Assembly (NCBI GenBank): GCA_016177265.1
Contig: JACOVP010000020.1
Coordinates: forward strand, 1 to 41,238
Direction of reading: 5' to 3'
Length of the DNA stretch: 41,238 bases
From: Candidatus Woesearchaeota archaeon
Lineage (GTDB): Archaea; Nanobdellota; Nanobdellia; SCGC-AAA011-G17; UBA489
This document shows positions 848 to 30,246 of this stretch, one piece after another. The notes beneath the pieces were generated by a model. The model ran no database searches and was not told the origin of the DNA. It worked only from the letters and a program-made list of their open reading frames with translations. Each line of letters opens with the position of its first letter. Positions within the stretch are counted from its first letter, which is position 1. Both the position numbers and the translations under genes were made by a program.

Positions 848-1222
848 TTATTGCTTCTTATAGCCAAAGATAGAATCATATCGCGGATGGTCGCATATTT
901 CGAAAACTACAACAATAACACTTAGTTCATCACCAGCGACATAATAGAGCAATCTCCAGAATTGGGACAGCTCCATGCGAAATAAATTAGGTAACTGCTT
1001 GAATTCTTTAGGCCATAAATGGTGTTGTACAGGATGTCCAGCAAAAGGATTTGTTTTAAGGAGATCCAAGGCATGTGTAATGCTTTTCAGAAGTTGTTTG
1101 TCTGCTTTGGCAGGAGTTTTTCCCTGTGCTTCAAGAGTATGAATCTGTGTTTCAAGTTGAGCAAGGGCAGTTTCTGCAGCACCTATAACTTTGACAATTT
1201 TTTGTTTGTCTTTTAAGTCCAT
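848..1222 (-). CDS. RelE/ParE-superfamily toxin-like protein with about 60-aa N-terminal helical extension
   Basis: C-terminal half resembles the ParE/RelE pattern: LLKTNPFAGHPV...LFRMELSQFWRLLYYVAGDELSVIVVVFEICDHPRYD. Overlaps the upstream wHTH ORF by 10 nt. Confidence 0.5.
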   Translation of the reverse strand: MDLKDKQKIVKVIGAAETALAQLETQIHTLEAQGKTPAKADKQLLKSITHALDLLKTNPFAGHPVQHHLWPKEFKQLPNLFRMELSQFWRLLYYVAGDELSVIVVVFEICDHPRYDSIFGYKKQ

Positions 1223-1500
1223 GTTCTTCCTTTGCTGAGAATTGCTGCTCTATCTTCTTTTGGTAGAAATATCCAAACAACACCATAGGGAGTAAATTCT
1301 ATTTTGCCGCTGTTCTGAAGATAAGCAAGTATGACTTTCAGAGTATTGTGATTGACCTTTCTTGGGAGTCTTCGTTTAAGTTCCGCAATGCTAAGGACTT
1401 CCTTTGCTTCTCGCAGAGTATCCTCTACCATTTGTACAGTTTCCAAAGTTGGGCTATGGAGGAGTTTTGGGCGAACAAGGAGTTGAGGCATAGTTATCAA
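1213..1500 (-). CDS. small winged-helix DNA-binding protein (possible antitoxin/regulator partner of 848..1222)
   Basis: 95 aa. SIAELKRRLPRKVNHNTLKVILAYLQNSGKIEF looks like wHTH. Overlap suggests translational coupling to the RelE-like ORF. Confidence 0.5.
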   Translation of the reverse strand: MITMPQLLVRPKLLHSPTLETVQMVEDTLREAKEVLSIAELKRRLPRKVNHNTLKVILAYLQNSGKIEFTPYGVVWIFLPKEDRAAILSKGRTWT

Positions 1501-1582
1501 TAAATATCAAATAGATACATATATATAAACCTTTCTATCTTAGGAGTTTGCATACTAAAGCAAGTAATCTGTTAAGTTTAGA

Positions 1583-2401
1583 TTATAAATCATCGAATGG
1601 ACTTTTAATCTTCTTCAGTTGCTCAGTGCTCACATGAAGATATCTTTCGCTCGTTGAGATTGAGGCGTGCCCGAGGAGCTGCTGTATATAGCGTATATCA
1701 GTTCCAGCCTCCAGCAAATGTGTCGCAAAACTGCTGCGTAAGGCATGACAAAAGACACGTTTCTTGATCTCTGCTTCCTTTGCAGCATCATTCACAATCC
1801 GTTGTGCCATCCTTACTGACATTGGTTTTCCGCCATGGCCAGTAAATATATAGTCTGACTGATACTTTCTTTTTTCTAAATAGAGTTGTAAATTCTGAAT
1901 CAATTGTTGTGACAAGATAATATGCCTGTCCTTTTTTCCTTTTCCACTTATGACTCTTCCCATCCTCTCGCTAAAATCCAAATCATTGACTTTCAATCGC
2001 ATGCATTCAGACACGCGCAACCCAGAAGCATACAAAAATTCTATTAAGAGTTTATGTTTAGGATTTTTCACAACAGCTAACATTTTTTTTATTTCATCCT
2101 TAGTCAACACCGTCGGTAATTTCTTCTCTATCTTTGGTGGTTTGATGTCCAAAAATACTTTTTTCTTTAACATGGTTTCATACAAAAAACGGAGTGCAGA
2201 AAGCGTTAAGTTGACAGATGCAGGTTTCAATTTCTTTTCTGCCATCAAGTGTGCTAAATACTGTTTAATATCTGTTTCAGTGATAGTTGCTGGTTCTTTT
2301 TTAGTAAACTCGAGAAATCTTTTGTTATGGATGGTATATGCCTGAATAGTCGCAGGCGTAAATCCCCTAATCTTTAACTCTGTCTCTAGCTGTTGGAGCA
2401 T
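1583..2401 (-). CDS. xerA: tyrosine recombinase, XerA/XerC/XerD-like
   Basis: 272 aa. N-terminal SAM-like core-binding domain. C-terminal catalytic signature SGLRVSE..., HALRSSFATHLLEAGTDIRYIQQLLGHASISTSERYLHV (R..HxxR..H..Y). GGTGA Shine-Dalgarno directly upstream of the ATG. Confidence 0.85.
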   Translation of the reverse strand: MLQQLETELKIRGFTPATIQAYTIHNKRFLEFTKKEPATITETDIKQYLAHLMAEKKLKPASVNLTLSALRFLYETMLKKKVFLDIKPPKIEKKLPTVLTKDEIKKMLAVVKNPKHKLLIEFLYASGLRVSECMRLKVNDLDFSERMGRVISGKGKKDRHIILSQQLIQNLQLYLEKRKYQSDYIFTGHGGKPMSVRMAQRIVNDAAKEAEIKKRVFCHALRSSFATHLLEAGTDIRYIQQLLGHASISTSERYLHVSTEQLKKIKSPFDDL

Positions 2402-2455: not shown

Positions 2456-2815
2456 TCACTGCAACTCTTTCAGCAACGTTTCCAAATCAGGTCGTATCAA
2501 AAGCTTTTTCCTAGTTCTTGGTGCCAGCGATGTTCCAGTAAAAAACTGCCAAACCATATATTTATCATCATGCAGGAAGTAGAGCCGTTGTCGCCGTTCA
2601 GCTACTAGGATGCATGAGCGAACAAGAAGCTCTAAAAGCAAAGGATCAATGCTGATAGCCTGCTGCATATCAAAGGCCAAATATCGTTTTTGTTGTTTTT
2701 TTGCTTCTCCTAGATATTTTTGTAGACTAGAGAGATCATCATATCCTACATGACGGTCAAAACGAAGCGCATACAACGAAGGAACTTCAGGCACATCGAT
2801 TTTCGTAATCGGCAT
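2456..2815 (-). CDS. hypothetical protein (119 aa)
   Basis: ATG 22 nt downstream of a minus-sense TTTATAAT box (2838..2845). No family recognised; faint STAS-like feel only. Confidence 0.5.
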   Translation of the reverse strand: MPITKIDVPEVPSLYALRFDRHVGYDDLSSLQKYLGEAKKQQKRYLAFDMQQAISIDPLLLELLVRSCILVAERRQRLYFLHDDKYMVWQFFTGTSLAPRTRKKLLIRPDLETLLKELQ

Positions 2816-2881
2816 AAAAAATGTACAAGAAAAAGAAATTATAAACCTTCCGTCAGAAAATCACTCTTAACTAAAGACAAA

Positions 2882-3583
2882 TTATCCGAAGTAGCTCTGC
2901 GTCTTTTGCTGATGGGTTTCCGTTGCATGCTTTGCTTTTGTTAATAAATCTTTGATTTTCTCTTCAAAGTCCTCTGCTTTTTCAAGCAAAGGTTTTACAT
3001 CTATCTTCAATCCTAAATAATCGTCCAAAACACGCATAATATTTGCTGCAGCTCTAGAGTCTGGTAACGCGCTGTGCGTCTCTGCAAAAATACAGTTGAT
3101 AGGAAAATCTTTATGCAGCAATAAAGCACCAGTCACACCCATAATGATACCTTCTTTTAACGGTTCCATCTGCTTGATACTTTTTAATTTTTTACTGTCT
3201 CCAAGGTAAAATGTTCTTGATTCCTCACTCTCCGGATTATTGCTCCCAACACCTTCCAAGCTAATAATTTCCTTCGCCTTCAAGTCTTTGGCCATCTGTA
3301 AAATATCTCTTGCTAGCTCCCATTCAAACCCAGCAACAGAAGTTAATGCATGCAGCACAACAAGATTTTCCCTTGATGAATAAAAGATACCTATTGGTTC
3401 AATCGCTTTGCCCTGATGCACTGGTACTACTGGCGGTACTTCTTCCATCCGGATATAGCCAATCTGCTGTGCATCCAAGTGCTTAATCAAAAATTCAGTC
3501 GTAATGGTGCCAACCAATCCAAACCCAGGAAATCCCTCTATGATGATCGGGCTTTTTGGCTTCTTGTGTAAAACAACCTGCAT
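2882..3583 (-). CDS. PAC2-family proteasome assembly chaperone-like protein
   Basis: PIIIEGFPGFGLVGTITTEFLIKHL N-terminal signature of the PAC2 family. Start moved to ATG 3583 (M36 of the track ORF) because a TATA box (3605..3612) lies 21 nt upstream and the longer N-terminus is Cys/Phe-rich junk. Confidence 0.75.
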   Translation of the reverse strand: MQVVLHKKPKSPIIIEGFPGFGLVGTITTEFLIKHLDAQQIGYIRMEEVPPVVPVHQGKAIEPIGIFYSSRENLVVLHALTSVAGFEWELARDILQMAKDLKAKEIISLEGVGSNNPESEESRTFYLGDSKKLKSIKQMEPLKEGIIMGVTGALLLHKDFPINCIFAETHSALPDSRAAANIMRVLDDYLGLKIDVKPLLEKAEDFEEKIKDLLTKAKHATETHQQKTQSYFG

Positions 3584-5022: not shown

Positions 5023-5116
5023 GGGTCCATAGCTCAGGCTGGTAGAGCACTTGTCATCAAGAAGATGGGTGAAGCTCTTAACCAAGGGGTCGTGGGTTCA
5101 AATCCCACTGGATCCG
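5023..5116 (+). tRNA. tRNA-Lys (anticodon CUU) with a 20-nt intron at non-canonical position 30/31
   Basis: Hand-folded cloverleaf. Acceptor GGGTCCA/TGGATCC, D-arm GCTC-AGGCTGGTA-GAGC, T-arm GTGGG-TTCAAAT-CCCAC, variable loop GGGTC, discriminator G. After removing 5054..5073 the anticodon arm is CTTGG-CTCTTAA-CCAAG (anticodon CTT at 5077..5079). No encoded CCA. TTTTAAA box 24 nt upstream. Confidence 0.85.
5054..5073 (+). other. tRNA intron (BHB-type)
   Basis: hBHBh' fold. Outer helix 5044-5047/5075-5078 (AGAG/CTCT). Central 4-bp helix 5048-5051/5068-5071 (CACT/GGTG, one G-U). 3-nt bulges 5052-5054 and 5072-5074. Inner helix 5055-5058/5064-5067 (CATC/GATG). Both splice sites fall after the 2nd bulge nucleotide. 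Confidence 0.8.
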
Positions 5117-5119
5117 CTC

Positions 5120-12936: not shown

Positions 12937-13212
12937 TTAGAGCAAATCCCGGATTTTTTCAATATGCTCTGCTATTCTTTGACCATTCTCTGTGAGTTTG
13001 ATAGTTTTAATGCGACCTTGCTTTTCAAAGTTGACCAGGTCAGCATCTTGCATTTGCTGTAAAATTTTAACCGCATGGGAGTAAGTGCAATCAACTTCTT
13101 TGGCAAGGACAGAACCGTAGCGATTTTTGACGCCGTTGCGTAAAGCGACTAGCATCATAGCTGGCTTTCGCCTGAAGAAAACCTCAAAAATGTCCTTGTC
13201 TTTCTTCTTCAT
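12937..13212 (-). CDS. winged-helix transcription regulator (ArsR/MarR-like), first gene of the vWA/MoxR operon
   Basis: 91 aa. YGSVLAKEVDCTYSHAVKILQQMQDADLVNFEKQGRIKTIKLTENG gives HTH plus wing. Same strand, 53 nt upstream of the BatA-like gene. Confidence 0.7.
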   Translation of the reverse strand: MKKKDKDIFEVFFRRKPAMMLVALRNGVKNRYGSVLAKEVDCTYSHAVKILQQMQDADLVNFEKQGRIKTIKLTENGQRIAEHIEKIRDLL

Positions 13213-14698: not shown

Positions 14699-14962
14699 TT
14701 ACGGTGCTACAACCTTAACACCGACGTGGAATTGGGCGCTGGCGCCTGCTTCTTGTTGGGCAGATTGATTTCGCTCTGTTTGTTCTACTAGACCTTGTTG
14801 CTGGACTACGGCATTCCCTGTCAAAGGAGTAGTCTGCTGTTGACCTTCACGAACAGCAAAGCCCGTCAGGGAACCGCTGGGGGAGTCAAAAGACTGAAAC
14901 AGGAGAAGAATGCCTGCAAACAAGAGAAGAGCTAGGCTGACATAGAGGAGTTCCCGAAACAT
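14699..14962 (-). CDS. small secreted/membrane protein, Gln-rich, hypothetical
   Basis: Signal-anchor LLYVSLALLLFAGILLLF. ATG 14962 preferred over track start TTG 14974 because a TTATATA box (14986..14992) is 23 nt upstream of the ATG. Confidence 0.4.
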   Translation of the reverse strand: MFRELLYVSLALLLFAGILLLFQSFDSPSGSLTGFAVREGQQQTTPLTGNAVVQQQGLVEQTERNQSAQQEAGASAQFHVGVKVVAP

Positions 14963-15010
14963 GGCATGAAACAAAAAAGAGAACCTTATATAGTTTCACC
15001 TTTTGTAAAT

Positions 15011-15295
15011 TACTTACTATAGACGTAAAAAAACTTATTTTATATGTGGAATACAATAAAAATACTTACTGAATACGAATAACTACTGCTAAAAATAAAT
15101 GGAATACATAAATAAACATACTATAGACGTAAAAAAACCTAATATAGCATAAAATCAAGAGTTAATTCCTTACTATAAACGTAAATTAACTGCCATATAG
15201 TGCTAGCAATCTTAAAATATACTTACTATTAACGTAATAATACTAATAAAAAGGGAAAAAAGAAGAGAATTTACCTACAAAACACGTAATTATAC
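15011..15295 (+). repeat. phased array of six 24-nt boxes, period 52-53 bp (candidate operator/iteron array)
   Basis: Boxes start at 15011, 15063, 15115, 15167, 15220, 15272. Sequences: tacttactatagacgtaaaaaaac / tacttactgaatacgaataactac / aacatactatagacgtaaaaaaac / tccttactataaacgtaaattaac / tacttactattaacgtaataatac / tacctacaaaacacgtaattatac. Confidence 0.8.
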
Positions 15296-15301
15296 ATAAT
15301 C

Positions 15302-15309
15302 TTTATATA
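15302..15309 (+). promoter_or_regulatory. TATA box of the HTH/surface-protein operon
   Basis: TTTATATA, 27 nt upstream of ATG 15337 and 6 nt after the last 24-nt box. Confidence 0.5.
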
Positions 15310-15336
15310 GAGGAACTAGCTCTCTCCAGCCGTTAG

Positions 15337-15897
15337 ATGGAAAGGCAACGCAGAAACCCACTCAGAAAGAAAGAGGCAGAACAGGAAAAGCCAGAGAGTT
15401 TTCTCAAGAAATTGCAGACTGAAGAGCGCATTACTCTAGAACGCATCAAGGAACTGCTCCATCTGCTCCGGGCAAAATACGCACTTACCACTAGGGAACT
15501 TATCCATTTGCTCGATGATAAGGATGTGCTTGTTCCCTTCTCTATCTTTACAAAAAAACTCAGCATCCTTGAAGCTATTGCAAAATATCTCAAGGAAGAG
15601 CTGCAATTGTCGTTTCATCAGATTGGTTCGTTGCTCAACCGCAATGAACGAAATATTTGGCACACCTACAGCAATACAAAGAAAAAATATGCTGCTCGCT
15701 TATCCATAACAGCTTCACGATATTTTTTTCCACTGTCTATTTTCCAAAATAATCTGAGCATTCTAGAAAATCTAGTTGTCTATGCGAAGGACGAACTCAA
15801 TTTGTCTTATCATCAAATTGCAGTATTGACAGAACGTAATGATCGTACTATCTGGACCATGTACCAACGTGCAAAGAAGAAGGTGGCGCAACAATGA
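15337..15897 (+). CDS. DNA-binding protein with two tandem sigma-70-region-4/LuxR-like HTH domains
   Basis: Internal duplication: FSIFTKKLSILEAIAKYLKEELQLSFHQIGSLLNRNERNIWHTYSNTKKK and LSIFQNNLSILENLVVYAKDELNLSYHQIAVLTERNDRTIWTMYQRAKKK. TATA 27 nt upstream. Stop overlaps the next start (ATGA). Confidence 0.7.
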   Translation: MERQRRNPLRKKEAEQEKPESFLKKLQTEERITLERIKELLHLLRAKYALTTRELIHLLDDKDVLVPFSIFTKKLSILEAIAKYLKEELQLSFHQIGSLLNRNERNIWHTYSNTKKKYAARLSITASRYFFPLSIFQNNLSILENLVVYAKDELNLSYHQIAVLTERNDRTIWTMYQRAKKKVAQQ

Positions 15898-16763
15898 ACG
15901 AGCAACTCCCGCGCTACAAGGAAGCACAGCAAGAGTTGATGAGGCAGATCCAGACGACGATGAAGAATAAAACTCTCTTGCAAGATACGTTGAAAGAATG
16001 GCAGGAGCAATTGAAGCGAGGAACAATAGATACTGCAACATACACAAACTCTATGCAGCAATTCCTGCAGGGAAGATCAGCAAATGAATGGAACAAAGTA
16101 TACGATGATCACGTCAAGAAATGCAACCAGGGATTGGTCTATTATGCAGAAAAGATCAATGAACTTGAAGCATCTGAAGAGACAAAAGGAAGCATCTGGC
16201 CAAAAGTTGGCATTGTAGCGGTTGCCTTAGTGCTCTTCTTTACCTTCCTAGCATTCAGTGATACGAAGATCACAGGTCTCTTTATTTTCGGGGAAGATGC
16301 AGGCAAGATAGTCTTTGAGGACGGATATACGCGAGAAGGAACGCGCTGGTCTGAAATCAAGGGAGACCATTATTATGAGCGTTGCCTCAAGATTAAGTCT
16401 GAAGCTGACTTCACTGCTGCTAAGGTTATGGGTAAAGTGACACGTGCAACTGAAGGGGAGAATATGCAATTTATATTAAGAAATGACAATAAAGGAGATC
16501 CCGCACAAGAAGTCGGTTCCTGTGAAGTGCGAAGCTATGAAGATGTTATAAAATCTTGTACTATAAAGAATTTAGAGCAGAACAAAGGAGATTATTGGGT
16601 TTGTGCGTCTCATCCGGAGGGAGATAAAGATCAAACCTATTTCACTATTGCCTACAGAGTTGGTGGAGAAAGAAAGACTGCATTATGGACAGGCAAAAGT
16701 TGGCAAAAGTTGGATAGATCTTCTTACACTATGAGGGTGCAGTTTATGAACGATGACGCATAA
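15894..16763 (+). CDS. single-pass membrane protein: helical cytoplasmic N-domain, TM, about 165-aa Cys-containing extracytoplasmic domain
   Basis: TM VGIVAVALVLFFTFLAF (about nt 16206..16260). Coupled to the HTH gene (ATGA) and overlaps the next gene by 11 nt. Confidence 0.65.
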   Translation: MNEQLPRYKEAQQELMRQIQTTMKNKTLLQDTLKEWQEQLKRGTIDTATYTNSMQQFLQGRSANEWNKVYDDHVKKCNQGLVYYAEKINELEASEETKGSIWPKVGIVAVALVLFFTFLAFSDTKITGLFIFGEDAGKIVFEDGYTREGTRWSEIKGDHYYERCLKIKSEADFTAAKVMGKVTRATEGENMQFILRNDNKGDPAQEVGSCEVRSYEDVIKSCTIKNLEQNKGDYWVCASHPEGDKDQTYFTIAYRVGGERKTALWTGKSWQKLDRSSYTMRVQFMNDDA

Positions 16764-19700
16764 GTCATTGAAGAAGAGATTAGTATTTTTTCTTAGTTTG
16801 GTAAGTTTGGTATTCTATCCGCAAATAAATATCGCAGAAGAAAATGTTCCACAACAAATCCAGATGCTGGAGACAGTGAAAAATGATGGTCCTACTACAG
16901 CAGACAATGAGATTACTTTTACTGGACAATGCAATGGACAAGATACCAAGCTAATTATATGTCGAAGCTCAGCGACACTCTGTGACATGGGGACGCTTCC
17001 AGGTGACCTGCTTTGTCTATCTGCTAGAACAAATGAAACGGAGAAATCATGCTCCTATACACCAACGCTAGAGGAAGCTGGTGAACATGCAGGATATAGT
17101 GCAACGTGCTGTGATCTACAAGAGAAATGCGCTGAAAATCAAACAACAGTGGACACATGGGTAATCAATGCACAAAATTCATTAATTATAAAAGATGATA
17201 ATGGTTTGCAAGTTCCAGCTGCTATTGAACAACAAGACACTTCTACCATACTCTCATTCACCAGCCAACCAATAGTCAAGATAACATTCACGAATTTGGA
17301 GGGTAATCAGATAGGACTTAGTCAAACAACTAGAGGGATTATCCCTCCAGAGGGTGTAGAATTTTCTAAAGTCTACGGCATTGATCTTGAGCAAGTCTCC
17401 TTTACAGAAGCAACACTCTATGCAACGGCAGAGGGCTCATCATTATATGTCTGTAAATTTTGGGACTTCACGTTAAGCACATGTATTGGATCTTGGGAAG
17501 CAGTCAAAAAATTGAATCAAAATGAAGAATATACATTCAACCTGCAAAAAAGTTCATTCGGATTTGCTGAAACAACAACCAGTCAAGAGCAGATCGTGGA
17601 AAGAGAAGAGCCATCAAAACAAATAACATCTCCACCTAAACAAAAAATAGAGGAACAAACATCGATAGACCCAGAGCTTCTTTTAGAGCCGATAAAAGAG
17701 GCACAAAATGAACCATTCCCAGTGGAAATAGGGAAAGTATCTAGCAATGGACCAATAGCTGCAGGTTCTCTCATAACTTTTACTGGAAGCTGCACCGGAG
17801 AGAATACTAGACTTTTACTTTGCAGATCAACAGCTACTTCTTGTGGTCTAAATACGCTCCCTGGAAATATTATTTGCCTGTCCGCAAGAACAAATGAATC
17901 AGAAAAGTCTTGTTCTTACAGCGCTATAGAAGAAGATCTTGGTGAACATAAGGAAGATACGGCTGTATGTTGTACAGAAGAGTATGGATGTACTTCTAAA
18001 ATCATCTTGATAGAGCCATGGACTGTGACAGCTCCTCCAGAAATAATACGGGAGGAAGCAAAAGAATCTGAGGAAGACATTCAAGAACAAGCAGAAATCA
18101 ATAAGCCAGTCAAATGGATCAAGAGGGTGCGATATCTTGAAAACGCTAGCAATGTCACGGTCAAAATTCACCCACGCGCAGCAGACATCAAAGTGCACAA
18201 GGTTGCCAATAAAGTGAAGGAAGAGCTCAAGCTAGACAAATGGGAGAAAAACGAAAGACCACAAGAGACAGAAATACTCATCAAGGAGCCAATTCAACAA
18301 GCAGACATTGAGTACAGCACTGCTCCGCCGACAATTGCTGAAGAGGTAATCAATGACTACAAAAAGAAGGTAGTTATTGGTTCTGATATTCACTATACTA
18401 ATATTCTTGCGTATATTGACATTCATGAGGCACAACAAAACCGCATCAGACTCTATCATGTGCAAAATGAGGCTAAAACGCCCGTGCAGATTACAGAATA
18501 TCAAGATACTAATAAAAATGGATTGATCGATAGAATAATGTGGGTTGTTCCAGGACTCAGCACAGAAACATATATCATAGAGATTACGAAAGCAGATCAT
18601 CTTGATAACAATAGGGAATTCATCTCGGACATTTATGAAGAAGTTCGTGAACTTGATGGGAACTGGAGTGAAACAATTCCTAATCAGCATTATGTAAGAG
18701 TTACTTTCGAAAAAAATCTTACAAATGAGAACGATATAACTGTTTATCCAAGGATTGTTTCAGGGAATCCAAGAATTGAGATATATGAAGTGAATGGCAA
18801 TGATATAATCGCTGAATTTACTTCATTGAGTCAAAACCAATACAATAAAGTCTTGCTAACGAATCTGCAGGGAAGCCAGGACACGTTTGATTTAAAAGTC
18901 CAGGGTGGAAGTTTGCAGTTTGACCATATTGTTGATCCTCCAGCAAAAATAGTCGACAATAGTTTTGGCTGCGATAAGACAAGCATTCAAGTCGGAGAAA
19001 CAACGAATTGTACCGGAGACTATGGGAATGCTGGTGACTCTTTTTTAACAGCCTGCAGTCTTCAGATCAACAACGAAATTACTCTCGAATTCTCTAATGT
19101 TTGCGGCGCTAACAACCTAAGAGTAAGCGCTATTGATGTAAGTCAGGCGAGTGCCGCAAGTTGTACTGACAACGGCAATGGCACTGTCAACTGCGTCAAC
19201 TGGCCCAGTACCGCCGACAACGTAGTGATTAACTGGACGCTAGAGGGTTGTGCCGTTTCTACAGCAAATACGCTCGACACAGAGAGTGTAGATTGCAATG
19301 ATCAGTTTAATAATAATGCGCTAGATATTGAAGTTACTGCTGGAGCAGATACAACTCCGCCGACATATTCTAACATAGAGTTTGATCCGGCTAATGCTTC
19401 AAGCTATTCGGTCACGCAATACTATGAGTTCAACGTAACATGGACTGATAATGTGCAGATAGATACAGCATACATAGTATTTGACGATGTGAATTACAGT
19501 GCTGGCGATATCTATAATTTATCAAGCGTGTATTCATTCAACAGAACAGGACTTTCTGTTGGAAGAGAGCACAATTATACTTGGTTCGCTAATGATTCTA
19601 ATGATAATGAAAATCAAACAGAATTGCAGTCTTATACGGTTGTTCAAGCAGAGCCAGGCGTCAACCTCACCTTAGACGGCAATGATGCCAACCTTACAAT

Positions 19701-21381
19701 TACTATGCTTGACGCAGTGAACATTACCGCAACACAAGAAACAGGAGAAGGAGATTTCCAACTCTTCCAAGATGGTGTTTTGATTAATGAAGGACAAACA
19801 CTGCTCAGCAACAGCACCAACTTCACTGGAGAAGGCGACTTCAACATCACGTCCTTCCACCCAGACACGGAAAACTTCACCACGAACTTCACCACCTTCT
19901 ACGTCATCAGCAGAGAGAATATCACGCCTGTCATAAATCTCACTGATCCCCTAGACAACAATGTTACGCTGATTACAGATAGTTCAACGAACCTTACTTT
20001 CTTGTCCAACGCGACAGACAATATCCAATTAGCGAATGCTACGCTGTACCACAATCTTTCTGGAACTTTCGAAGCGAATGAAACAGTCTTTATTGACGGC
20101 ATCTTCAATGAAACAGCTTTCTCACTCAACATAGCGCCCACTACATCATTTATCTGGAATGTCCTCTACTGTGATAATGCTACGAGTCCCAATTGCGCCT
20201 TTGGTGACACGAATTTTACTGCTACCGTAGAACGAGATACGCAAGCTCCCATAGTCAATCTGACCGATCCATTAAACAACAATATCACCAGCACGGACAC
20301 GACAGCAAATCTCACGTTCTTGTCTAATGCAACCGATAACCTTGAACTAGCCAACGCCACGCTGTACCACAATCTTTCTGGAACTTTCGAACAGAACCAA
20401 ACCACAGACATTAATGGCACCTTTAATGAAACTGCGTTCTCCATAGATATAGCACCTACAACAACCTTCATTTGGAACGTGCTCTACTGTGACGCAGCAG
20501 GCAACTGTGATTTTGCAGTAGATAATTTCACAGCAACCGTCCAACCAGATACAGTAGCGCCAATCGTCGAGGCCATTGATGGACCAGGCGGCAACACTAT
20601 TAGTGATCAATCCGTCACGGAAGATAATATCACAGACTTAGAAGTCACGTTCACCGTCACCGATGACAACGGAGTTGCAGATTTAGACTTCTCCACCGTC
20701 AACATCACTCTCTACAACAGCACATATATCACAACCGATGTCAACTACTTCAGCCAGAATACGTCCTGCAATAATAATGAAAATATTTCAGCCACGCAGG
20801 CGAACTTCACCTGCAACATCGAAATCAACTACTGGTACACGGCAGGAGACTGGAATATCACTGCAGGAGTAACAGACATCTCAGGTTTCAGTAGCGAAAA
20901 TGCCACGAATATGTCGATCCAAGAAACCACAGCCATCGCCATCTCGCCAACGAGTATCACCTTCCCAGAACTGACCTTGGGAGCAGAAAACATCACCTCA
21001 GACACCGATCCTATTACTATCAACAACACTGCCAATGACTACATCGATCAAAACAACACGAGAGTCACTGGTTTAGATCTCGTGGGCGAGGTAACTGATA
21101 CACAAGCCATCACGGCAGAGAACTTCACGGTCAGCGAAAGCACAGGTGAAACTCCCCCCGTAGAATGCTCCAATATTGGCGATGATTTAAATAACTCGCG
21201 CCTGATCAACAACACTGCAATAAATGTCAATATGTCAGTCTTGCCCGCGGGCAATCGCAGTATCGCTAATGAGGGTGTCGAGCAGATCTACTTCTGTATT
21301 CCTCTGGTCCCCGATACGCTGTTGCCTCAAGCCTATTCCACCCTCAACAGTACCACAGGATGGACGGTATCGGTGATTTAA
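16753..21381 (+). CDS. giant secreted surface protein, paralog A (1542 aa)
   Basis: Sec-type signal peptide (LVFFLSLVSLVFYPQINIAEE). Two 8-Cys modules, Ig-like repeats, Cys-rich central cassette, roughly 55 N-x-S/T sequons in the C-terminal about 675 aa (manual count). C-terminal about 270-aa domain shared with 21383..25930 and 25978..27018. No C-terminal TM. Confidence 0.85.
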   Translation: MTHKSLKKRLVFFLSLVSLVFYPQINIAEENVPQQIQMLETVKNDGPTTADNEITFTGQCNGQDTKLIICRSSATLCDMGTLPGDLLCLSARTNETEKSCSYTPTLEEAGEHAGYSATCCDLQEKCAENQTTVDTWVINAQNSLIIKDDNGLQVPAAIEQQDTSTILSFTSQPIVKITFTNLEGNQIGLSQTTRGIIPPEGVEFSKVYGIDLEQVSFTEATLYATAEGSSLYVCKFWDFTLSTCIGSWEAVKKLNQNEEYTFNLQKSSFGFAETTTSQEQIVEREEPSKQITSPPKQKIEEQTSIDPELLLEPIKEAQNEPFPVEIGKVSSNGPIAAGSLITFTGSCTGENTRLLLCRSTATSCGLNTLPGNIICLSARTNESEKSCSYSAIEEDLGEHKEDTAVCCTEEYGCTSKIILIEPWTVTAPPEIIREEAKESEEDIQEQAEINKPVKWIKRVRYLENASNVTVKIHPRAADIKVHKVANKVKEELKLDKWEKNERPQETEILIKEPIQQADIEYSTAPPTIAEEVINDYKKKVVIGSDIHYTNILAYIDIHEAQQNRIRLYHVQNEAKTPVQITEYQDTNKNGLIDRIMWVVPGLSTETYIIEITKADHLDNNREFISDIYEEVRELDGNWSETIPNQHYVRVTFEKNLTNENDITVYPRIVSGNPRIEIYEVNGNDIIAEFTSLSQNQYNKVLLTNLQGSQDTFDLKVQGGSLQFDHIVDPPAKIVDNSFGCDKTSIQVGETTNCTGDYGNAGDSFLTACSLQINNEITLEFSNVCGANNLRVSAIDVSQASAASCTDNGNGTVNCVNWPSTADNVVINWTLEGCAVSTANTLDTESVDCNDQFNNNALDIEVTAGADTTPPTYSNIEFDPANASSYSVTQYYEFNVTWTDNVQIDTAYIVFDDVNYSAGDIYNLSSVYSFNRTGLSVGREHNYTWFANDSNDNENQTELQSYTVVQAEPGVNLTLDGNDANLTITMLDAVNITATQETGEGDFQLFQDGVLINEGQTLLSNSTNFTGEGDFNITSFHPDTENFTTNFTTFYVISRENITPVINLTDPLDNNVTLITDSSTNLTFLSNATDNIQLANATLYHNLSGTFEANETVFIDGIFNETAFSLNIAPTTSFIWNVLYCDNATSPNCAFGDTNFTATVERDTQAPIVNLTDPLNNNITSTDTTANLTFLSNATDNLELANATLYHNLSGTFEQNQTTDINGTFNETAFSIDIAPTTTFIWNVLYCDAAGNCDFAVDNFTATVQPDTVAPIVEAIDGPGGNTISDQSVTEDNITDLEVTFTVTDDNGVADLDFSTVNITLYNSTYITTDVNYFSQNTSCNNNENISATQANFTCNIEINYWYTAGDWNITAGVTDISGFSSENATNMSIQETTAIAISPTSITFPELTLGAENITSDTDPITINNTANDYIDQNNTRVTGLDLVGEVTDTQAITAENFTVSESTGETPPVECSNIGDDLNNSRLINNTAINVNMSVLPAGNRSIANEGVEQIYFCIPLVPDTLLPQAYSTLNSTTGWTVSVI
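19924..20556 (+). repeat. in-frame tandem duplication inside paralog A (107-aa and 104-aa units)
   Basis: TPVINLTDPLDNN...NFTATVERDTQ versus APIVNLTDPLNNN...NFTATVQPDTV. Identical 33-mer acgctgtaccacaatctttctggaactttcgaa at 20041 and 20359. Confidence 0.8.
21037..21230 (+). repeat. near-identical dispersed block, copy 1 (3' region of paralog A)
   Basis: gactacatcgatcaaaacaacacgagagtcactggtttagatctcgt...aataaatgtcaa. I count 6 mismatches over 194 nt versus copy 2. Confidence 0.8.
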
Positions 21382-21382
21382 G

Positions 21383-24300
21383 ATGAACTTTTCATATCAG
21401 AAAAAAAAGAGAAACGTCTTTTTACTAATCATAGGTCTCTTTTTAGCATTCACAGTTGGGGCAGAGAATCATGATATTAATCAAGAACCTCATGTAGGAA
21501 CAGTAACAAGTAATGGCTCTGTTATTGAAGGCACGCCAATTACATTTATGGGAACTTGTCAAGGAGAAAACACTCAACTAGTTGTTTGCCAAGAAAATAC
21601 GATCTGCAGTACACAATCTAATCAAGAAGATATAATTTGCTCCTCAGAGTTTACAGATGATGCAGAGAAAGAATGTGTATATATAACAACCAAGGAAGAC
21701 TTATCAATTCATAATAATGACATTGCCACCTGTTGTAATGGAGAAGGTATTTGTGATTCCAATGTTGTGGCAGTTCCTCCTTGGATGGTCCTCGATGAGC
21801 AAGCTACATCACAAATAATAATTTTAGATGATGAAGATAATCTTGTTCCGGCAACAGTTACACAACAAGACACAGAAACTGATATAATTTTTATAAATCA
21901 ACCGATTACAAAATTGCAGTTTAGTGTTTTTGAAGGAAATAAGATTGGTTTAAGTCAAGCGACACGAGGGATTATTCCACCAGAAGGCATAGAGTTCGCA
22001 AAAGTTTACAGCCTAGATGTAGAAGAAGTAAATTTCACTGAAGCAACGTTGTATGCCCTAGCGCAGGGCGCATCACTCTATCTCTGTAAGTTCTGGGACT
22101 TTACATTGAGCACTTGTGTAGGCTCCTGGGATGTAATAAAAAACATTGAACCAAATACAGAATACACTTTCAACCTGCAAAAAGGTTCATTCGGCTTTGC
22201 TGAAGCTATAACAGAAGCACAGCCAGCAGTGCAGCCAGTGATTGAACAGCCTCCTGAAGAGCCAGTCAAGGAGCCGGTTGTCGAAGAACCAATCATCATT
22301 GAAGAGCCAGTTCCAGAAATAAATATAGAAGGTCCTATCACCAATAATGGCCCAGTAGAGCAAGGGCAAGAAATAATATTTTCAGGAATATGCAAAAGCA
22401 ACCAACCAACACAAGTAGTCATCTGTCGAGATAATATTGTTTGCAATGCAGAAACTTCCAAAGAAAATGTGTTGTGCACTTCTGTGCAGTCCCCAGATGA
22501 ACGTAAGTCATGTGCTTATAGTACAACTACAGAAGACATTGGAGAAAATGTAGACTCTATTGCTACATGCTGTACCACTGAAGGCAGCTGCGCAGCAGAA
22601 ACTAAATCTCTAGAATCATGGGCAGTGACAGCCCCTCTAAAAATAATACAAGAAGAGATAAAAGAGTCAGAAGAAGATATCCAGGAGCCAGCAGAGATCA
22701 ATAAACCAGTGCATTGGAAGAAAAAAATAAAGCTTAAGCAGGATATGAAGGACCTTACTGTTACTATCCCTTCCACAAGCACCAACATTACTATTCTTAA
22801 ACGAGAAAATGAGCTTCTCCAAGAATTACAGACCGAACAGTGGAGTCTTCTTGAGAAAGAAAAAGAGAAAGAAATAACCATCAATATACCAGTAAATGAT
22901 GTTGAGTTAGATTATGTTACAGAACCGCCACAGGTAAGTGAATCTGAATTGAGTCCGCACAAAAAACAAGTTACCGTGAGCTCGGATCTGTCCTACACGA
23001 ATATCACCTCGTATACCATCATTCCAGAGACACCAGAGAAAAAACTGCGGCTCTTTTGGATGGTCAATGAATCACGGCAACCAGTAGATAATGTACGATA
23101 TCTCGATACCAATGGCGATAGGCTCATTGATCGGATTGAATGGTTTATTTCCCATTTAAGCAATCAGACCTATGAAGTCATTATGGTGACGAAAGCGGAT
23201 CATCTAGATGAGAATAAAGTGTTCTTGTCCGATGTCTACAACGAGGTCAAGCAATTGGATAATGTTTGGAGTGAAACCATTCCAGAAACCCATTACGTTC
23301 AAGTGACGTTTGGCACACCCCTGACAGCAAGACACGATATTTCTATCTATCCACGCATAGTGGGTGGTAATCCAAAGATTATAGTCTATGAAGTCAATCA
23401 ATCGGAAGTGCTGGCGGAATTCTCTACCATCACAGCAAACCAGTACAATAAAGTCTTTTTAGAGAATCTCAACGGAACGCAAGAGACGTTTGATTTGCAG
23501 ATTCTTAATGGTGCTGTTGAGTTTGATCATATTGTTGATCCAACGCTCACTATTTCTAATATAACCACTCTCTGCGGTGAAGTCACTGCTTATGACACCA
23601 TTGTGGTCACGGAAACAGGTGAGCTGGAAATTTGTCTTATGAATGGAACTGGCACGAATAGCAATACTGGTTTTGTGAACATTACCTTGGGATCTGTAGG
23701 AAATTTCTCTGTCGCTGCAGGCGGGATAGTGAATGGCACTGGTGGCGGTGCTGAAGGTGGCGCGGGTACAAATTCAGGCTGCGCAACCCAGGGAGATAAT
23801 GGTCAGAATTATACGAATGGAGTGGCTCTTTGTAGTCCGAATGGTGGAGGCGGTGGAGGAGGAAGTGATGCTACTTCTACTGCCGAGACCGCTGGAGGTG
23901 GTGGAGGGGGATTTGGAGGCGCTGGCGGTACTGGTGGGAAGTCTGCAACTGGTGGTACAGTGGGCGCGGCAGGTGGAACGTATGGAGATGCTGAAGAACA
24001 AGAGCTCAATACATCTGGTTCCGGTGGTGGTGGTAGTTCAGATGACGCTGGAGTTAGAGGAGGTTCTGGTGGCGCTGGTTTTAGGGTTGACGCTGGCAGC
24101 GGCGAGATTAATATTCAAGGCACTATTAATGTGAGTGGGGAAGATGGCACAGATGCCGCGGGAAACGCGGATCGGGCGGGAGCAGGCGGAGGAAGTGGCG
24201 GTCATGTTATCCTGATTGCGAAAAAATTAAATCTTAATGCAGGTGCTATTTACGCGGAAGGGGGAAGAGGAGGCAATGGAGGCACTACCGCTGATGGTTG

Positions 24301-25930
24301 TGGTGGTGGAGGCGGTGGCGGAGGAAGAATTGTCTATGTCTATGATAATATTACCGAAGACAGCCTTATCAATTCAACAGATGGTGGTGACAGAGGCAAT
24401 AGCCCAGACACTGGTCCTTGTGCGGCCCTGCCAACGTTAGGTACCAACGGAACAGTCTTCTATAATCAATCAACGTTCGCGGATCTTTCACCACCAATAG
24501 CTGACCCTAATAGTATAGTTTTCGATCCAATCAATGAAACAAATTACACGCTTACACAATTCTACGAATTCAATGCCACATGGACAGATGATGTGGAAGT
24601 AGACAATGTCTTCATCACGTTCAACGAAACGAACTACAGCTTTGCAAAAGGAGAAGTCTACAACAGTTCAGAGACACCAACCGTCTTCTCCTTCAACCAG
24701 ACAGGATTGGCAGCGGCAGAATATAACTACACGTGGTTCGCCAACGATTCTAGTAACAACGAAAACCAGACAGACTTGCAGTTTGGATACATTGTCGCGC
24801 GAGCGGAGCCTGAAGTGAACTTGACCTTAAATGATACCATAAATAACATCACCATCATAGTCAGCGATGCGGAAGTCAATCATTCTGCCTCGTTAATTAC
24901 AGGTGACTCTGAAGCAACCGTCCAGATCCTTCAAGACGGAGTAGCCATGGTGACAGAAGGCGCCTCTCCTACCATCAGCAACGTCACCAACTACACAGCA
25001 ACAGGAACCTACAATATCACTGTCCTGTATCAAACCTCGGAAAATTATACCACGAACTTTACGACGCTCTTCGTCGAGGTCACTGCAGCAGCTGGAGGCA
25101 ACACTGCACCAGTCGTTGAAGCGATTGATGGCCCAGGTGGTAATACCATCTCATCTCAATCAGTAACAGAAGATGGCATCACTGACCTAGGAGTCACCTT
25201 CACCATCACAGATGCAGAAGGAGTTACAGACTTAAATGCAACAGAAATAAACATCACGCTCTTCAACACCACCTATATCACGACCGATGTCAACTACTTT
25301 AGCCAAAACACCTCGTGCGACAACATCAACAACATCTCATCAACACAGGCGAACTTTACGTGCAACATAGAGATCAACTACTGGTACACAGCAGGAGAAT
25401 GGAATCTCACCGTTGGAGCAACTGACATTGCTGGTGCAAGTAGCGAAAATGCTACCAATATAAGCATCGGAGAGACAACAGCTATTGTTATTGACCTAAC
25501 GTCACTGACATTCCCGCAATTGATTTTAGGGGCAGAAAACACCACCTCAGACAACGATCCTATCACCATCAACAACACAGCCAATGACTACATCGATCAA
25601 AACAACACGAGAGTCACTGGTTTAGATCTCGTGGGCGAAGTAACTGATACACAGGCCATCACGACAGAGAACTTCACGGTCAGCGAAAGCACAGGTGAAA
25701 CTCCGCCCGTAGAATGCTCCAATATTGGTGATAATTTAAATAACTCGCGCCTGATCAACAACACTGCAATAAATGTCAACATGTCAATCTTATCCTCAGG
25801 TAATCGTAGTATCGCGGGAGAAGGCGTCGAGCAACTGTATGTGTGCATTCCTATAGTTCCCGATGGACTCCTGCCCCAGGCCTATTCCACGTTAAATGGT
25901 ACAACAGGATGGACAGTATCTGTGGTATAA
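21383..25930 (+). CDS. giant secreted surface protein, paralog B (1515 aa) with Gly-rich central cassette
   Basis: Signal peptide (VFLLIIGLFLAFTVGAEN). Collinear with paralog A except for a swapped central cassette and the missing tandem pair. GGTGAT Shine-Dalgarno 5 nt upstream, 1-nt gap after paralog A. Confidence 0.85.
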   Translation: MNFSYQKKKRNVFLLIIGLFLAFTVGAENHDINQEPHVGTVTSNGSVIEGTPITFMGTCQGENTQLVVCQENTICSTQSNQEDIICSSEFTDDAEKECVYITTKEDLSIHNNDIATCCNGEGICDSNVVAVPPWMVLDEQATSQIIILDDEDNLVPATVTQQDTETDIIFINQPITKLQFSVFEGNKIGLSQATRGIIPPEGIEFAKVYSLDVEEVNFTEATLYALAQGASLYLCKFWDFTLSTCVGSWDVIKNIEPNTEYTFNLQKGSFGFAEAITEAQPAVQPVIEQPPEEPVKEPVVEEPIIIEEPVPEINIEGPITNNGPVEQGQEIIFSGICKSNQPTQVVICRDNIVCNAETSKENVLCTSVQSPDERKSCAYSTTTEDIGENVDSIATCCTTEGSCAAETKSLESWAVTAPLKIIQEEIKESEEDIQEPAEINKPVHWKKKIKLKQDMKDLTVTIPSTSTNITILKRENELLQELQTEQWSLLEKEKEKEITINIPVNDVELDYVTEPPQVSESELSPHKKQVTVSSDLSYTNITSYTIIPETPEKKLRLFWMVNESRQPVDNVRYLDTNGDRLIDRIEWFISHLSNQTYEVIMVTKADHLDENKVFLSDVYNEVKQLDNVWSETIPETHYVQVTFGTPLTARHDISIYPRIVGGNPKIIVYEVNQSEVLAEFSTITANQYNKVFLENLNGTQETFDLQILNGAVEFDHIVDPTLTISNITTLCGEVTAYDTIVVTETGELEICLMNGTGTNSNTGFVNITLGSVGNFSVAAGGIVNGTGGGAEGGAGTNSGCATQGDNGQNYTNGVALCSPNGGGGGGGSDATSTAETAGGGGGGFGGAGGTGGKSATGGTVGAAGGTYGDAEEQELNTSGSGGGGSSDDAGVRGGSGGAGFRVDAGSGEINIQGTINVSGEDGTDAAGNADRAGAGGGSGGHVILIAKKLNLNAGAIYAEGGRGGNGGTTADGCGGGGGGGGRIVYVYDNITEDSLINSTDGGDRGNSPDTGPCAALPTLGTNGTVFYNQSTFADLSPPIADPNSIVFDPINETNYTLTQFYEFNATWTDDVEVDNVFITFNETNYSFAKGEVYNSSETPTVFSFNQTGLAAAEYNYTWFANDSSNNENQTDLQFGYIVARAEPEVNLTLNDTINNITIIVSDAEVNHSASLITGDSEATVQILQDGVAMVTEGASPTISNVTNYTATGTYNITVLYQTSENYTTNFTTLFVEVTAAAGGNTAPVVEAIDGPGGNTISSQSVTEDGITDLGVTFTITDAEGVTDLNATEINITLFNTTYITTDVNYFSQNTSCDNINNISSTQANFTCNIEINYWYTAGEWNLTVGATDIAGASSENATNISIGETTAIVIDLTSLTFPQLILGAENTTSDNDPITINNTANDYIDQNNTRVTGLDLVGEVTDTQAITTENFTVSESTGETPPVECSNIGDNLNNSRLINNTAINVNMSILSSGNRSIAGEGVEQLYVCIPIVPDGLLPQAYSTLNGTTGWTVSVV
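25586..25779 (+). repeat. near-identical dispersed block, copy 2 (3' region of paralog B)
   Basis: Same in-frame position (DYIDQNNTRVTGLDLVGE...INNTAINVN) as copy 1. Confidence 0.8.
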
Positions 25931-27649: not shown

Positions 27650-29090
27650 ATATTTTATCTCCTTTCGACAGCTGTTCTTTATTCTAGTTCTAGTACTCCT
27701 CGCTATGCGACTTTCCTTCTATCAAAAAGAAGAGCAAAAAACAATAATTGATGCAGCCTCTGTCTTTGATGCAGCCGCCACCACAGGGCTGACTAACATT
27801 TCCGCAACCGTCATCGACAGTTCACCATTCATCACGATCACTAATCCAGAGAACAAAACGTATGAAAATAATGAAAGCGTAGAGCTAAACATCTCGGTTG
27901 CGAATATGTCCTCTCTTTCTATCGATCAGGCGTTCTATAATCTTGATGATACTGATAATATTACCTTGACGTTGGACAGCAATAATGAAAACAGGACATT
28001 CTTTGGTACAGCTGAGGGTTCACACACATTGAAAGTTTTCGCTAATAATACAGCAAATGAGCTCAACAGCACGTCAGTAGACTTATTCTTAAACAGATCG
28101 ATTCGTTTTCATGTCAACTACTCTAAATACGATGCATTGACCACAGCGTTCAGTACGCTGAATGAGTCAGACTTGGAAACGATACAGAACATGATCTTAG
28201 AGATATCTTCATTTGGCAAGATTGAATTTAATGAGGTAATTAATATGACAGATGATAATATAACGGATGAGAATGTCGATATTAATCCAGATTACCATAT
28301 CAATATCACAAGCATGCTTATCTTTATCAATGAAACCGTCTTTCCAAATTTGGAAGGCAAACAAGCTTCAATTGCTTTCTACAATGTATCCTTTGCTAAC
28401 CCTAGGGTTCTTAGAAATGGAGTAGCATGTCCTGTAACTATCTGCACATCACAGACTCTTGCAAACCAAATACTAACAGTGAGCATATCAGGCTTTTCAC
28501 AGTATGAAGTAGAAGAAGGTGAAGGTGAGGGTGCAGGAGGAGGTGGTGGGGGCGGTGGAGTTGGAGGTGGAGGCGGAGGTGGCGGAGGAGTTGCTACTAC
28601 CGCTACGTATAATTTAGACGAGGTAGATGAGCAGACCAATCTTCTTGCTAGAATCGGTAAAATATTCATTATCTGGAAAGGAGAAGAATATACCGCTCGT
28701 GTTGGAAAGCCTTCGCCAAGCATAGTCTTGATTGATTTTACAGTTCTTGGAGCAAAATTAATGCTAAGCGTTGGGCAAACAAGTACACTAGATCTCGATA
28801 ATGATGGGGAAGTAGATATAAGAATAAAAGTAGAGGATATGAAAAGCAACTTTCTCATTCTAACAGTGAGTGCTCTACGACCGAGAAGCGAACCCTCTAG
28901 AGATATTAAAAAACAAGAGGAAGAACCAAAGCCATTACCAAGGTCACTCATCACGATCACAAAAAAAGCATTACTCAATAAAGATCTCCTAGGAATAATT
29001 CTTTTATTAATTGTTGCTGGCATTATTGTTGAAGTTGAACGCCGCAAGAAAATGAAGAGTCATAAAGGAAGAGCTTTGCACAATAAATAG
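27636..29090 (+). CDS. sequon-rich surface protein with poly-Gly linker and C-terminal TM anchor
   Basis: N-terminal signal anchor FFILVLVLLAMRL. Ig-like ITITNPENKTYENNESVELN.... Linker GEGEGAGGGGGGGGVGGGGGGGGGV. C-terminal LLGIILLLIVAGIIVEVERRKK. First ATG of the track ORF. Confidence 0.7.
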   Translation: MQDGKYFISFRQLFFILVLVLLAMRLSFYQKEEQKTIIDAASVFDAAATTGLTNISATVIDSSPFITITNPENKTYENNESVELNISVANMSSLSIDQAFYNLDDTDNITLTLDSNNENRTFFGTAEGSHTLKVFANNTANELNSTSVDLFLNRSIRFHVNYSKYDALTTAFSTLNESDLETIQNMILEISSFGKIEFNEVINMTDDNITDENVDINPDYHINITSMLIFINETVFPNLEGKQASIAFYNVSFANPRVLRNGVACPVTICTSQTLANQILTVSISGFSQYEVEEGEGEGAGGGGGGGGVGGGGGGGGGVATTATYNLDEVDEQTNLLARIGKIFIIWKGEEYTARVGKPSPSIVLIDFTVLGAKLMLSVGQTSTLDLDNDGEVDIRIKVEDMKSNFLILTVSALRPRSEPSRDIKKQEEEPKPLPRSLITITKKALLNKDLLGIILLLIVAGIIVEVERRKKMKSHKGRALHNK

Positions 29091-29101: not shown

Positions 29102-29157
29102 AGCAGATGCAATCTACGTCACGAGCAAAGGTTTTTGTGCTTGTCCTCTCATCTGCT
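29102..29157 (-). other. 8-bp inverted repeat spanning the tnpB stop codon (candidate omega-RNA stem or bidirectional terminator)
   Basis: AGCAGATG (29102..29109) and CATCTGCT (29150..29157). Lies between convergent genes separated by only 23 nt. Confidence 0.3.
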
Positions 29158-30214: not shown

Positions 30215-30238
30215 AGAATTACCGATTATTGTTTTCCC

Positions 30239-30246
30239 TTTATATA
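30239..30246 (-). promoter_or_regulatory. TATA box of tnpB-like gene
   Basis: Minus-sense TATATAAA, 24 nt upstream of ATG 30214. Confidence 0.5.

Follow-up and report, generated by a model that had tools for sequence, protein, structure and literature searches.

The intergenic region at positions 14963-15336 of a 41,238-nucleotide (nt) contig assigned to Candidatus Woesearchaeota archaeon (JACOVP010000020.1) contains six copies of a short sequence box, placed five turns of the DNA helix apart in front of a gene encoding a 186-amino-acid (aa) protein with two tandem helix-turn-helix (HTH) motifs. In the following, "the window" designates the whole 41 kb stretch. The comparison of this region with related loci indicates that the array is probably cis-regulatory, being an operator or upstream activating sequence (UAS) array of the adjacent tandem-HTH protein, which would act as a local regulator of its own operon. 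The boxes are conserved among orthologous loci, are specific to the promoters of one gene family, are in helical phase, and covary in sequence with the recognition helix of the neighboring protein.

The box array and its conservation

The six boxes are all on the + strand and occupy 15011-15295, with starts at 15011, 15063, 15115, 15167, 15220, and 15272 and box-to-box spacings of 52, 52, 52, 53, and 52 bp. A first-pass annotation, made from the sequence alone, had described the same six same-strand boxes, and we recovered them at these coordinates. The recount also agreed with its 10 invariant positions, with ACGT in five of the six boxes, with TTAC..GTAA dyad ends complete in three of six, and with the limits given to the array: box 6 ends 6 nt short of the TATA box (15302-15309), and a distance of 17 nt separates box 1 from the minus-strand TATA (14984-14993). 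Boxes 1 and 3, said to match at 21 of 24 positions, in fact match at 22 of 24. As for the proposed 24-nt consensus, its invariant positions hold, but the selectively conserved part of the box is a 17-nt core, TACTTAC-N5-ACGTA, and the AC at positions 23-24 belongs to an additional TACTTA-like half-site. In the clade of the window, this third half-site starts 21 nt after the box start (15032, 15084, 15136, 15188, 15241, and 15293), i.e., two helical turns past the first. Across 25 boxes from five loci of this clade, positions 22-27 after the box start are TACTTA-like, with A23 and C24 at 92%. In the proximal unit the half-site reads TACATA at 15293 and abuts the TATA box. The scores given below are those of a position weight matrix (PWM), and a PWM was iterated over the upstream regions of 160 related loci (L001-L160; 920 kb scanned).

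15011-15034 (+): box 1; core at 15011-15027, TACTTACTATAGACGTA; additional half-site from 15032; PWM 17.2 bits
15032-15048 (+): weak seventh box or half-site, AACTTATTTTATATGTG; 21 nt past the start of box 1; 9.6 bits; counterpart at the equal relative position in locus L087
15063-15086 (+): box 2; core TACTTACTGAATACGAA; right half degenerate; PWM 13.3 bits
15115-15138 (+): box 3; core AACATACTATAGACGTA; PWM 10.1 bits
15167-15190 (+): box 4; core TCCTTACTATAAACGTA; PWM 15.6 bits
15220-15243 (+): box 5; core TACTTACTATTAACGTA; start 82 nt upstream of the TATA start, a family-wide peak; 19.5 bits
15272-15295 (+): box 6, promoter-proximal; core TACCTACAAAACACGTA; start 30 nt upstream of the TATA start, a family-wide peak; 17.0 bits

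The search of the window with an 18-nt consensus, allowing up to three mismatches, returned five sites, all inside the array (chance expectation, 0.09; 0 of 100 shuffles reached five), and the PWM additionally picked up the weaker box 2, which carries ACGAA. Neither scan revealed further boxes in the rest of the 41 kb. The array region is much poorer in G+C than the window (22.5% versus 40.6%). The identity among the boxes of the window is 76% in the cores and 36% in the spacers, which is the chance level. The array was not reported by Tandem Repeats Finder, since the units have diverged too far in the parts that flank the cores.

Both the boxes and their spacing are kept in orthologous regions. 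At 89% protein identity, L081 has six boxes separated by 52, 52, 53, 52, and 52 bp; there are four in L001 (72%), at 52 bp, and six or seven in L087 (62%), separated by 52, 52, 52, 53, and 52 bp; and L082 has three at 52 bp before the contig ends. The absence of boxes and phasing upstream of homologous operons, which the first-pass annotation had named as the result that would speak against its proposal, was looked for, and the boxes and spacing turned out to be kept at 62-89% protein identity. When these orthologues were compared with the window in register, the identity was 79-80% in the cores and 49-52% in the spacers, with 36% expected by chance. Since cores and register are kept while the spacers drift, the box sequences are under selection, and so is their spacing.

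The analysis of the whole family led to a 17-nt core reading TACTTA(C/T)A-N4-A(Y)GTA. Most PWM matches (447 of 496) lie no more than 500 bp upstream of a gene of the tandem-HTH family, about 90% of them on the strand of the gene, and 28 of the 496 were found elsewhere. The distances between adjacent boxes peak at 21-22, 31-32, 42-43, 52-53, 63-64, and 73 bp. Their best period is 10.6 bp (mean resultant length, 0.69), and 78% of the 225 non-redundant spacings are within 1.5 bp of a multiple of this value, versus 28% expected. The rule is therefore any whole number of helical turns, of which the clade of the window uses five. The suggestion, already made at first pass, that the array lies on one helical face is thus supported by the spacing kept in orthologues and by a 10.6-bp periodicity that is family-wide.

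These results bear on the view that tandem 52-bp duplications of the promoter-proximal unit left the upstream copies behind as neutral remnants and that only the TATA-proximal box matters, which we consider highly unlikely. The number of units does vary in close relatives (four in L001, six in the window and L081, six or seven in L087), which fits unequal recombination. Nevertheless, the spacers have drifted to 49-52% among orthologues and to chance level within the window, with cores at 76-80%, and the register is held within 1 bp down to 62% protein identity. Moreover, the spacings are locked to multiples of 10.6 bp that differ between lineages, which would not be expected from simple remnants.

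The geometry of the promoters was described relative to the TATA motif, since gene starts within K/R-rich N-termini are uncertain and the first in-frame ATG is unreliable. Box starts concentrate at +12 (11-14), -20, -30, -41, -52, and -82, so that the phasing of the array extends to the TATA box. Most members of the family have their TATA box sandwiched between one box just upstream and another starting 4 nt past it. The ATG follows 19-34 nt after the start of this downstream box, which thus spans approximately positions -18 to -2 of a start that is nearly leaderless. In the clade of the window, the downstream box has been lost, and an upstream-only array of four to seven boxes, with box 6 at -30 and box 5 at -82, has been kept.

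Two other arrangements were seen in the family. Upstream of the HTH gene in L083 (~2560-3085) and L002, a block of ~109 bp is present in tandem copies, each with a pair of boxes 22 bp apart (spacing pattern 22, 87, 22, 87, 22, 85, 53), which suggests that arrays grow by block duplication. In L011, L106, L107, L025, L129, L132, and L024, a box-like TACTTACATTTAATGAT occurs within the first ~20 codons of the HTH gene, in the coding N-terminus (L-T-F-N-D); it could be a chance PWM match or an intragenic operator.

The tandem-HTH protein and its covariation with the box

The AlphaFold2 (AF2) model of the 186-aa protein (pLDDT of 82.5 overall and >90 in the HTH parts) shows a long N-terminal helix (residues 19-48) followed by two HTH repeats resembling region 4 of sigma-70, with three helices each and recognition helices at 104-117 (HTH1) and 169-185 (HTH2). 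Pfam Sigma70_r4_2 matched residues 140-182 (E = 2.2e-8; 34.1 bits, for a cut-off of 25.7), and the first repeat is recognizable as an internal repeat in the family alignment. Using Foldseek, each repeat was superposed on sigma region 4 with a root mean square deviation of 0.5-0.7 Å over 43-47 residues and a probability of 1.00; the local matches (2h27, 2o8x, 3vep, and 5fgm) correspond to solved region 4 domains of sigma E, C, D, and R. The protein has no Pfam match to Sigma70_r2, and the NCBIfam sigma models scored far under their cut-offs. Since it has no sigma-2 domain, it is not a sigma factor. The search of PDB sequences with the family profile gave no match at E ≤ 1, and the whole-chain fold search gave none at E ≤ 1e-3, the matches to sigma region 4 being at the domain level only. 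Weak whole-chain matches were 1u78, 7s03, and 2lvs, the last being Cbp2 (rank 29).

The family is large, with 1,986 clusters at 50% identity (E ≤ 1e-10) and 241 confirmed copies in GTDB species genomes, and the module is often present in several copies per metagenome-assembled genome (MAG). Homologues are labelled Woesearchaeota or Nanoarchaeota, which places the organism among the DPANN archaea, and no relatives were found in viral contigs. Eight MAGs with the module (L005, L020, L032, L056, L058, L061, L067, and L073) are titled "uncultured Methanosarcinales archaeon," which is probably a mislabelling or binning issue in the records. Some family matches (P0047-P0073, among others) hold two full tandem-HTH modules in 316-370 aa, and others carry the module at the C-terminus of giant open reading frames of 1700-5900 aa. 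Such cases may reflect genuine fusions or else read-through in gene calling.

The association between protein and box was quantified as mutual information (MI) for all 186 × 24 pairs of residues and box positions in 115 non-redundant loci. The two highest pairs link Asn106 and His109, which are three residues apart on the HTH1 recognition helix, to box position 14 (0.78 and 0.81, respectively), and the third links His109 to box position 12 (0.64). Other protein columns averaged 0.23 against position 14, and the maximum in 200 label shuffles was 0.54. All the loci with Asn106 (67/67) have C or T at position 14, and those with Thr106 mostly have A; the Asn106 state changes about six times on a rough neighbor-joining tree built without the HTH1 recognition helix. 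Paralogues in a single MAG (JAFCCI) show the same correspondence, RNIWH occurring with ACGTA and RTIWI with AAGTA, and JBDRFR and CAZPBI are alike. A perfect palindrome, TACTTA-N5-TAAGTA, forms the box at loci where HTH1 as well as HTH2 is RTIWT-like. When HTH1 is degenerate, the canonical right half-site is gone (ATTCTA/TTTCTA) and the left half is retained. Hardly any variation is seen in the HTH2 helix (R-T-I-W-T) or in the left half (TACTTA), and the centers of the half-sites are 11 bp apart.

Taken together, the covariation, the half-sites of the paralogues, the palindrome, and the cases of degenerate HTH1 suggest that one monomer is bound per box as a pseudo-dimer. We infer that the two covalently linked HTH units of a single chain would share one 17-bp box, with the nearly invariant HTH2 on the invariant left half TACTTA and HTH1 (R-N-I-W-H in the clade of the window) on the right half A-A-C/T-G-T-A. 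With half-site centers ~11 bp apart, the two would sit in successive major grooves on one face. The first-pass annotation had proposed the two-HTH protein as the binder of the boxes, and the covariation between recognition helix and box supports this.

The boxes might instead be functional binding sites of another trans-acting factor, such as a global regulator or a chromatin protein, the HTH gene being merely regulated. The AT-rich boxes are in promoter DNA, where many factors bind, and an ArnR1-like winged-helix gene is found 2 kb away (12937-13212). Nevertheless, the matches to the motif are nearly confined to the promoters of the tandem-HTH family itself, the two strongest covariation signals fall on recognition-helix residues of the neighboring protein, and a shared global factor would not explain why paralogues in one genome have right half-sites matching their own HTH1. 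We therefore regard this alternative as unlikely.

The operon, its possible regulation, and the surrounding window

The operon that the tandem-HTH protein would regulate comprises its own gene, that of a membrane partner, and those of giant surface proteins. The genes and promoter elements around the array are as follows.

14699-14962 (-): divergent gene of an 87-aa protein with a hydrophobic N-terminal segment, syntenic in L081 and L001
14984-14993 (-): TATA-like element of this divergent small membrane-protein gene, CTATATAAGG on the minus strand
15302-15309 (+): TATA box of the tandem-HTH gene, TTTATATA, 35 nt ahead of the ATG (29 nt, for comparison, in the SerRS promoter)
15337-15897 (+): tandem-HTH gene, 186-aa protein, proposed binder of the boxes
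15894-16763 (+): gene of the 289-aa partner, its start overlapping the stop codon of the HTH gene
16753-25930 (+): two giant secreted proteins (1542 and 1515 aa) carrying numerous N-x-S/T sequons, their N-terminus resembling a signal peptide

The predicted structure of the 289-aa partner has a cytoplasmic three-helix domain (residues 4-96), one transmembrane (TM) helix (103-122), and an extracellular beta-sandwich. The N-domain forms a three-helix hairpin (H4-41, H47-57, and H63-96), and the ectodomain, which gave the sole matches of the fold search, has a weak likeness to CBM6 and to ephrin-receptor ligand-binding domains. Neither the N-domain nor the giant proteins gave anything significant in Pfam, NCBIfam, and PDB searches, and no anti-sigma domain signature was found in the N-domain (Pfam and PDB). 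This organization is common in the family. The gene immediately downstream overlaps the stop codon of the HTH gene in nearly all loci (gap of -3 to -16 nt). Among the 124 loci with enough downstream sequence (from 139 non-redundant proteins), 63 have the first TM helix of its product at residues 80-110. The N-domain was aligned from 65 of these loci, chosen by a TM start at 75-130, in which the product contains a conserved ~95-aa cytoplasmic helical domain and one TM helix, at about residue 85-110. The size of the ectodomain ranges from ~170 aa, as in the window, to >1200 aa, in which case a giant surface protein is fused. Homologues of the 1542- and 1515-aa secreted proteins follow the HTH gene on the same strand in 60 of the 94 loci with at least 2.5 kb downstream.

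Boxes separated by integral numbers of turns (here five) and phased with the TATA box would place the bound proteins all along one face of the DNA. Such a line-up would leave room for cooperative or architectural action on the TATA-binding protein (TBP), transcription factor B (TFB), and RNA polymerase (RNAP). The box between TATA and start site in most of the family is in the position expected of a repressor, and the other boxes are just upstream of the TATA. In the clade of the window, where the stretch from TATA to ATG is free of any box, the protein may either activate from upstream or repress by occluding the TATA box through the abutting TACATA half-site.

Several points weigh against reading the array as the operator of the tandem-HTH protein. 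The box downstream of the TATA, on which autorepression rests elsewhere in the family, is precisely the one that the clade of the window is without, and box 1 is out of the usual phase of the family with the minus-strand TATA. Adjacent boxes are 52 bp (~177 Å) apart, so that cooperativity is uncertain: direct contact between proteins would require DNA bending or long flexible arms. The pairing of HTH2 with the left half is suggested by symmetry arguments only, both being nearly invariant. The covariation statistics treat related loci as independent, and the tree is a rough neighbor-joining one. Finally, no RNA sequencing run by which the transcription start might be fixed is listed as carrying the sequence, which was seen only in four groundwater DNA metagenomes.

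The pairing of a region-4-like factor with a co-translated membrane protein is reminiscent of signaling by extracytoplasmic function (ECF) sigma factors and their anti-sigma factors. By analogy, the module may perhaps be an archaeal counterpart built from sigma-region-4 parts, in which a tandem-sigma4 factor is held or modulated by its partner and released upon contact with a surface or a host, switching the adhesin operon; this is possible but doubtful. The ectodomain of the partner would be either a CBM-like sensor or the giant adhesin itself, the latter in many relatives, and the factor would then act through the helically phased operator array. If this were true, the code relating residues 106/109 to box positions 12/14, being simple and evolvable, would insulate the many paralogous modules within one DPANN genome.

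In four relatives the locus shows synteny with SerRS, and it is thus chromosomal and stable. This bears on whether the array represents the iterons of a replication origin or a partition (centromere-like) site bound by a small DNA-binding protein. Plasmid iteron and parC/parS arrangements consist of direct, regular, AT-rich repeats beside the gene of a small DNA-binding protein, as is the case here. However, several copies of the module are found per MAG, each ahead of a surface-protein operon; no Orc1/Cdc6, Rep, or ParA gene is nearby in the 41 kb window; the synteny with SerRS is shared by four relatives, and no relatives were found in viral contigs; and the boxes are phased with the TATA, one of them being between TATA and ATG in most relatives. 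An origin or partition function of the array is accordingly exceedingly improbable, and the iteron alternative mentioned at first pass did not stand, given a multi-copy module that always fronts the tandem-HTH gene family without an initiator gene nearby.

A degenerate mini-CRISPR-like array, with a repeat of 24 nt and a spacer of 28 nt, or an RNA-level element in the 5′ leader has almost no probability. The layout is inside CRISPR dimensions, and the archaeal tandem-HTH proteins Cbp1 and Cbp2 bind CRISPR repeats (PMC3597662), Cbp2 being a weak match of our fold search. However, the repeats are merely 76% alike, and there are no cas genes or leader, the sole Cas-like match being a TnpB/Cas12f-like gene on the opposite strand at a distance of 14 kb. 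The "spacer" length in relatives varies by whole helical turns (spacings of 21-73 bp), and a canonical TATA box is downstream of the array. As RNA, the array folds worse than shuffled sequences (z = +1.6), and the Rfam scan of the whole window revealed one tRNA only and nothing in the array. The origin, iteron, centromere, CRISPR, and 5′-leader readings were thus all rejected on copy number, synteny, gene content, phasing, TATA position, and lack of RNA structure.

Elsewhere in the window, the following features were observed.

1-600 and 848-2401 (-): ParE-like toxin and tyrosine integrase genes close to the window's AT-rich beginning (26-32% G+C), which may be the edge of an integrated element
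5023-5117 (+): tRNA gene of 95 nt (Rfam, 49.9 bits) interrupted by ~23 nt that presumably form an intron; the anticodon "atc" called by ARAGORN is probably an artefact of this intron
28517-28593: GGA/GGT-rich repeat encoding a glycine-rich stretch of the 504-aa protein that ends the surface-protein cluster
29114-30355 (-): TnpB/Cas12f-like protein (Cas12f1-like TNB domain and OrfB_IS605), directly after the surface-protein cluster and beside topoisomerase I
33131-33179: weak 10-11-nt repeats (TAAATGAT / TAAATAGATG), intergenic, just upstream of the gene at 33175 and after a TATA-like TTTATATA at 33120, which may be another small operator

To our knowledge, gene regulation in DPANN archaea, which are uncultivated or hard to grow, is almost wholly uncharted. 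The present analysis would add a large, apparently uncharacterized family of transcription factors (about 2000 clusters at 50% identity) together with its DNA motif, a predicted rule of recognition between residues and bases, and a target, the operons of giant surface proteins that probably mediate attachment to the host. The locking of site spacing to the helical repeat, TATA box included, makes an unusually clean natural data set on the geometry of archaeal promoters, the geometric rule being unusually explicit and the recognition code readable. To put these claims to the test, one purified 186-aa protein and synthetic DNA would suffice, and no culture is needed.

Comparison with known regulatory systems

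In working principle, the nearest precedents are archaeal Lrp-type autoregulators, monomeric dual-HTH binders such as MarA, and position-dependent dual regulators such as TrmBL1; in protein architecture, they are tandem-HTH proteins such as Cbp1 and Cbp2. With bacterial sigma-70 region 4 and ECF sigma factors that have a transmembrane anti-sigma factor, the tandem-HTH module shares the HTH fold and the gene organization, the next gene overlapping the first and encoding a membrane protein with a single TM pass, a ~95-aa cytoplasmic N-domain, and an extracytoplasmic domain. It differs from them by the lack of a sigma-2 domain, by the two copies of region 4 in tandem, and by a partner without an anti-sigma signature. 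Monomers of MarA, SoxS, and Rob, of the AraC family, place two HTH motifs on one asymmetric box of ~20 bp, as seen in the MarA-DNA structure. The tandem-HTH protein also has two HTH units per polypeptide, which would read half-sites separated by about one turn on a single face of the DNA, and in both cases the orientation of the sites and their distance to the core promoter matter. In contrast with these regulators, it has no AraC-type HTH_18 signature, its repeats are sigma-region-4-like, the promoter is an archaeal TBP/TFB promoter, and the arrays are long and phased.

Among archaeal regulators, those of the Lrp type such as Ss-LrpB use boxes within their own control regions that are regularly spaced and in helical alignment, for which cooperative binding or wrapping has been proposed, with activation or repression depending on position and concentration and with spacings of 2-3 turns (PMC2995911). 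Ss-LrpB, Ptr2, and FL11 resemble the system described here in being local autoregulators with several imperfectly palindromic boxes brought to one face of the DNA by helical periodicity. However, the 186-aa protein is not of the Lrp/AsnC family, having neither a winged helix nor a RAM domain (Sigma70_r4_2 is its only Pfam match), and it would bind as a monomeric pseudo-dimer, judging from its sequence and that of the boxes, whereas Lrp proteins are dimers or octamers. The spacings also differ, being of 2 to 7 turns in the family, with six boxes at 5 turns here, versus 2-3 turns in Lrp (PMC2995911). TrmBL1 recognizes a palindromic TGM site, TATCAC-N5-GTGATA, and it blocks RNAP recruitment from sites downstream of the TATA and activates from sites upstream of the TFB recognition element (BRE) and TATA (PMC4706686). 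Palindromic sites and the use of positions both upstream and downstream of the TATA are thus common to TrmBL1/SurR-type regulators and the tandem-HTH family, but the proteins belong to different families, and global regulons with single sites are opposed to a local module with phased multi-site arrays.

Cbp1 and Cbp2 are small archaeal proteins in which two or three HTH repeats are joined in one chain; their targets are repeats of ~25 bp that are regularly interspaced (PMC3597662). They share linked HTH repeats with the 186-aa protein, as do the bipartite HTH proteins of the Tc3/paired type, in line with the weak fold matches to 1u78, 7s03, and 2lvs. Unlike the CRISPR repeats bound by Cbp1 and Cbp2, the boxes are in the promoter of the protein's own operon; the HTH repeats are sigma-region-4-like, not homeodomain-like, and the sequences are unrelated. 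The first-pass annotation knew of no described archaeal element of this architecture. This holds for the protein family and the box, which were not found in the literature searched, but helically aligned boxes have a precedent in Ss-LrpB (PMC2995911). Our search for work on the tandem-HTH family or the box motif in Woesearchaeota or DPANN found nothing specific. The regulator family and its DNA code thus appear to be undescribed, and they appear to constitute a new family of transcription factors and operators that belongs to none of those compared here.

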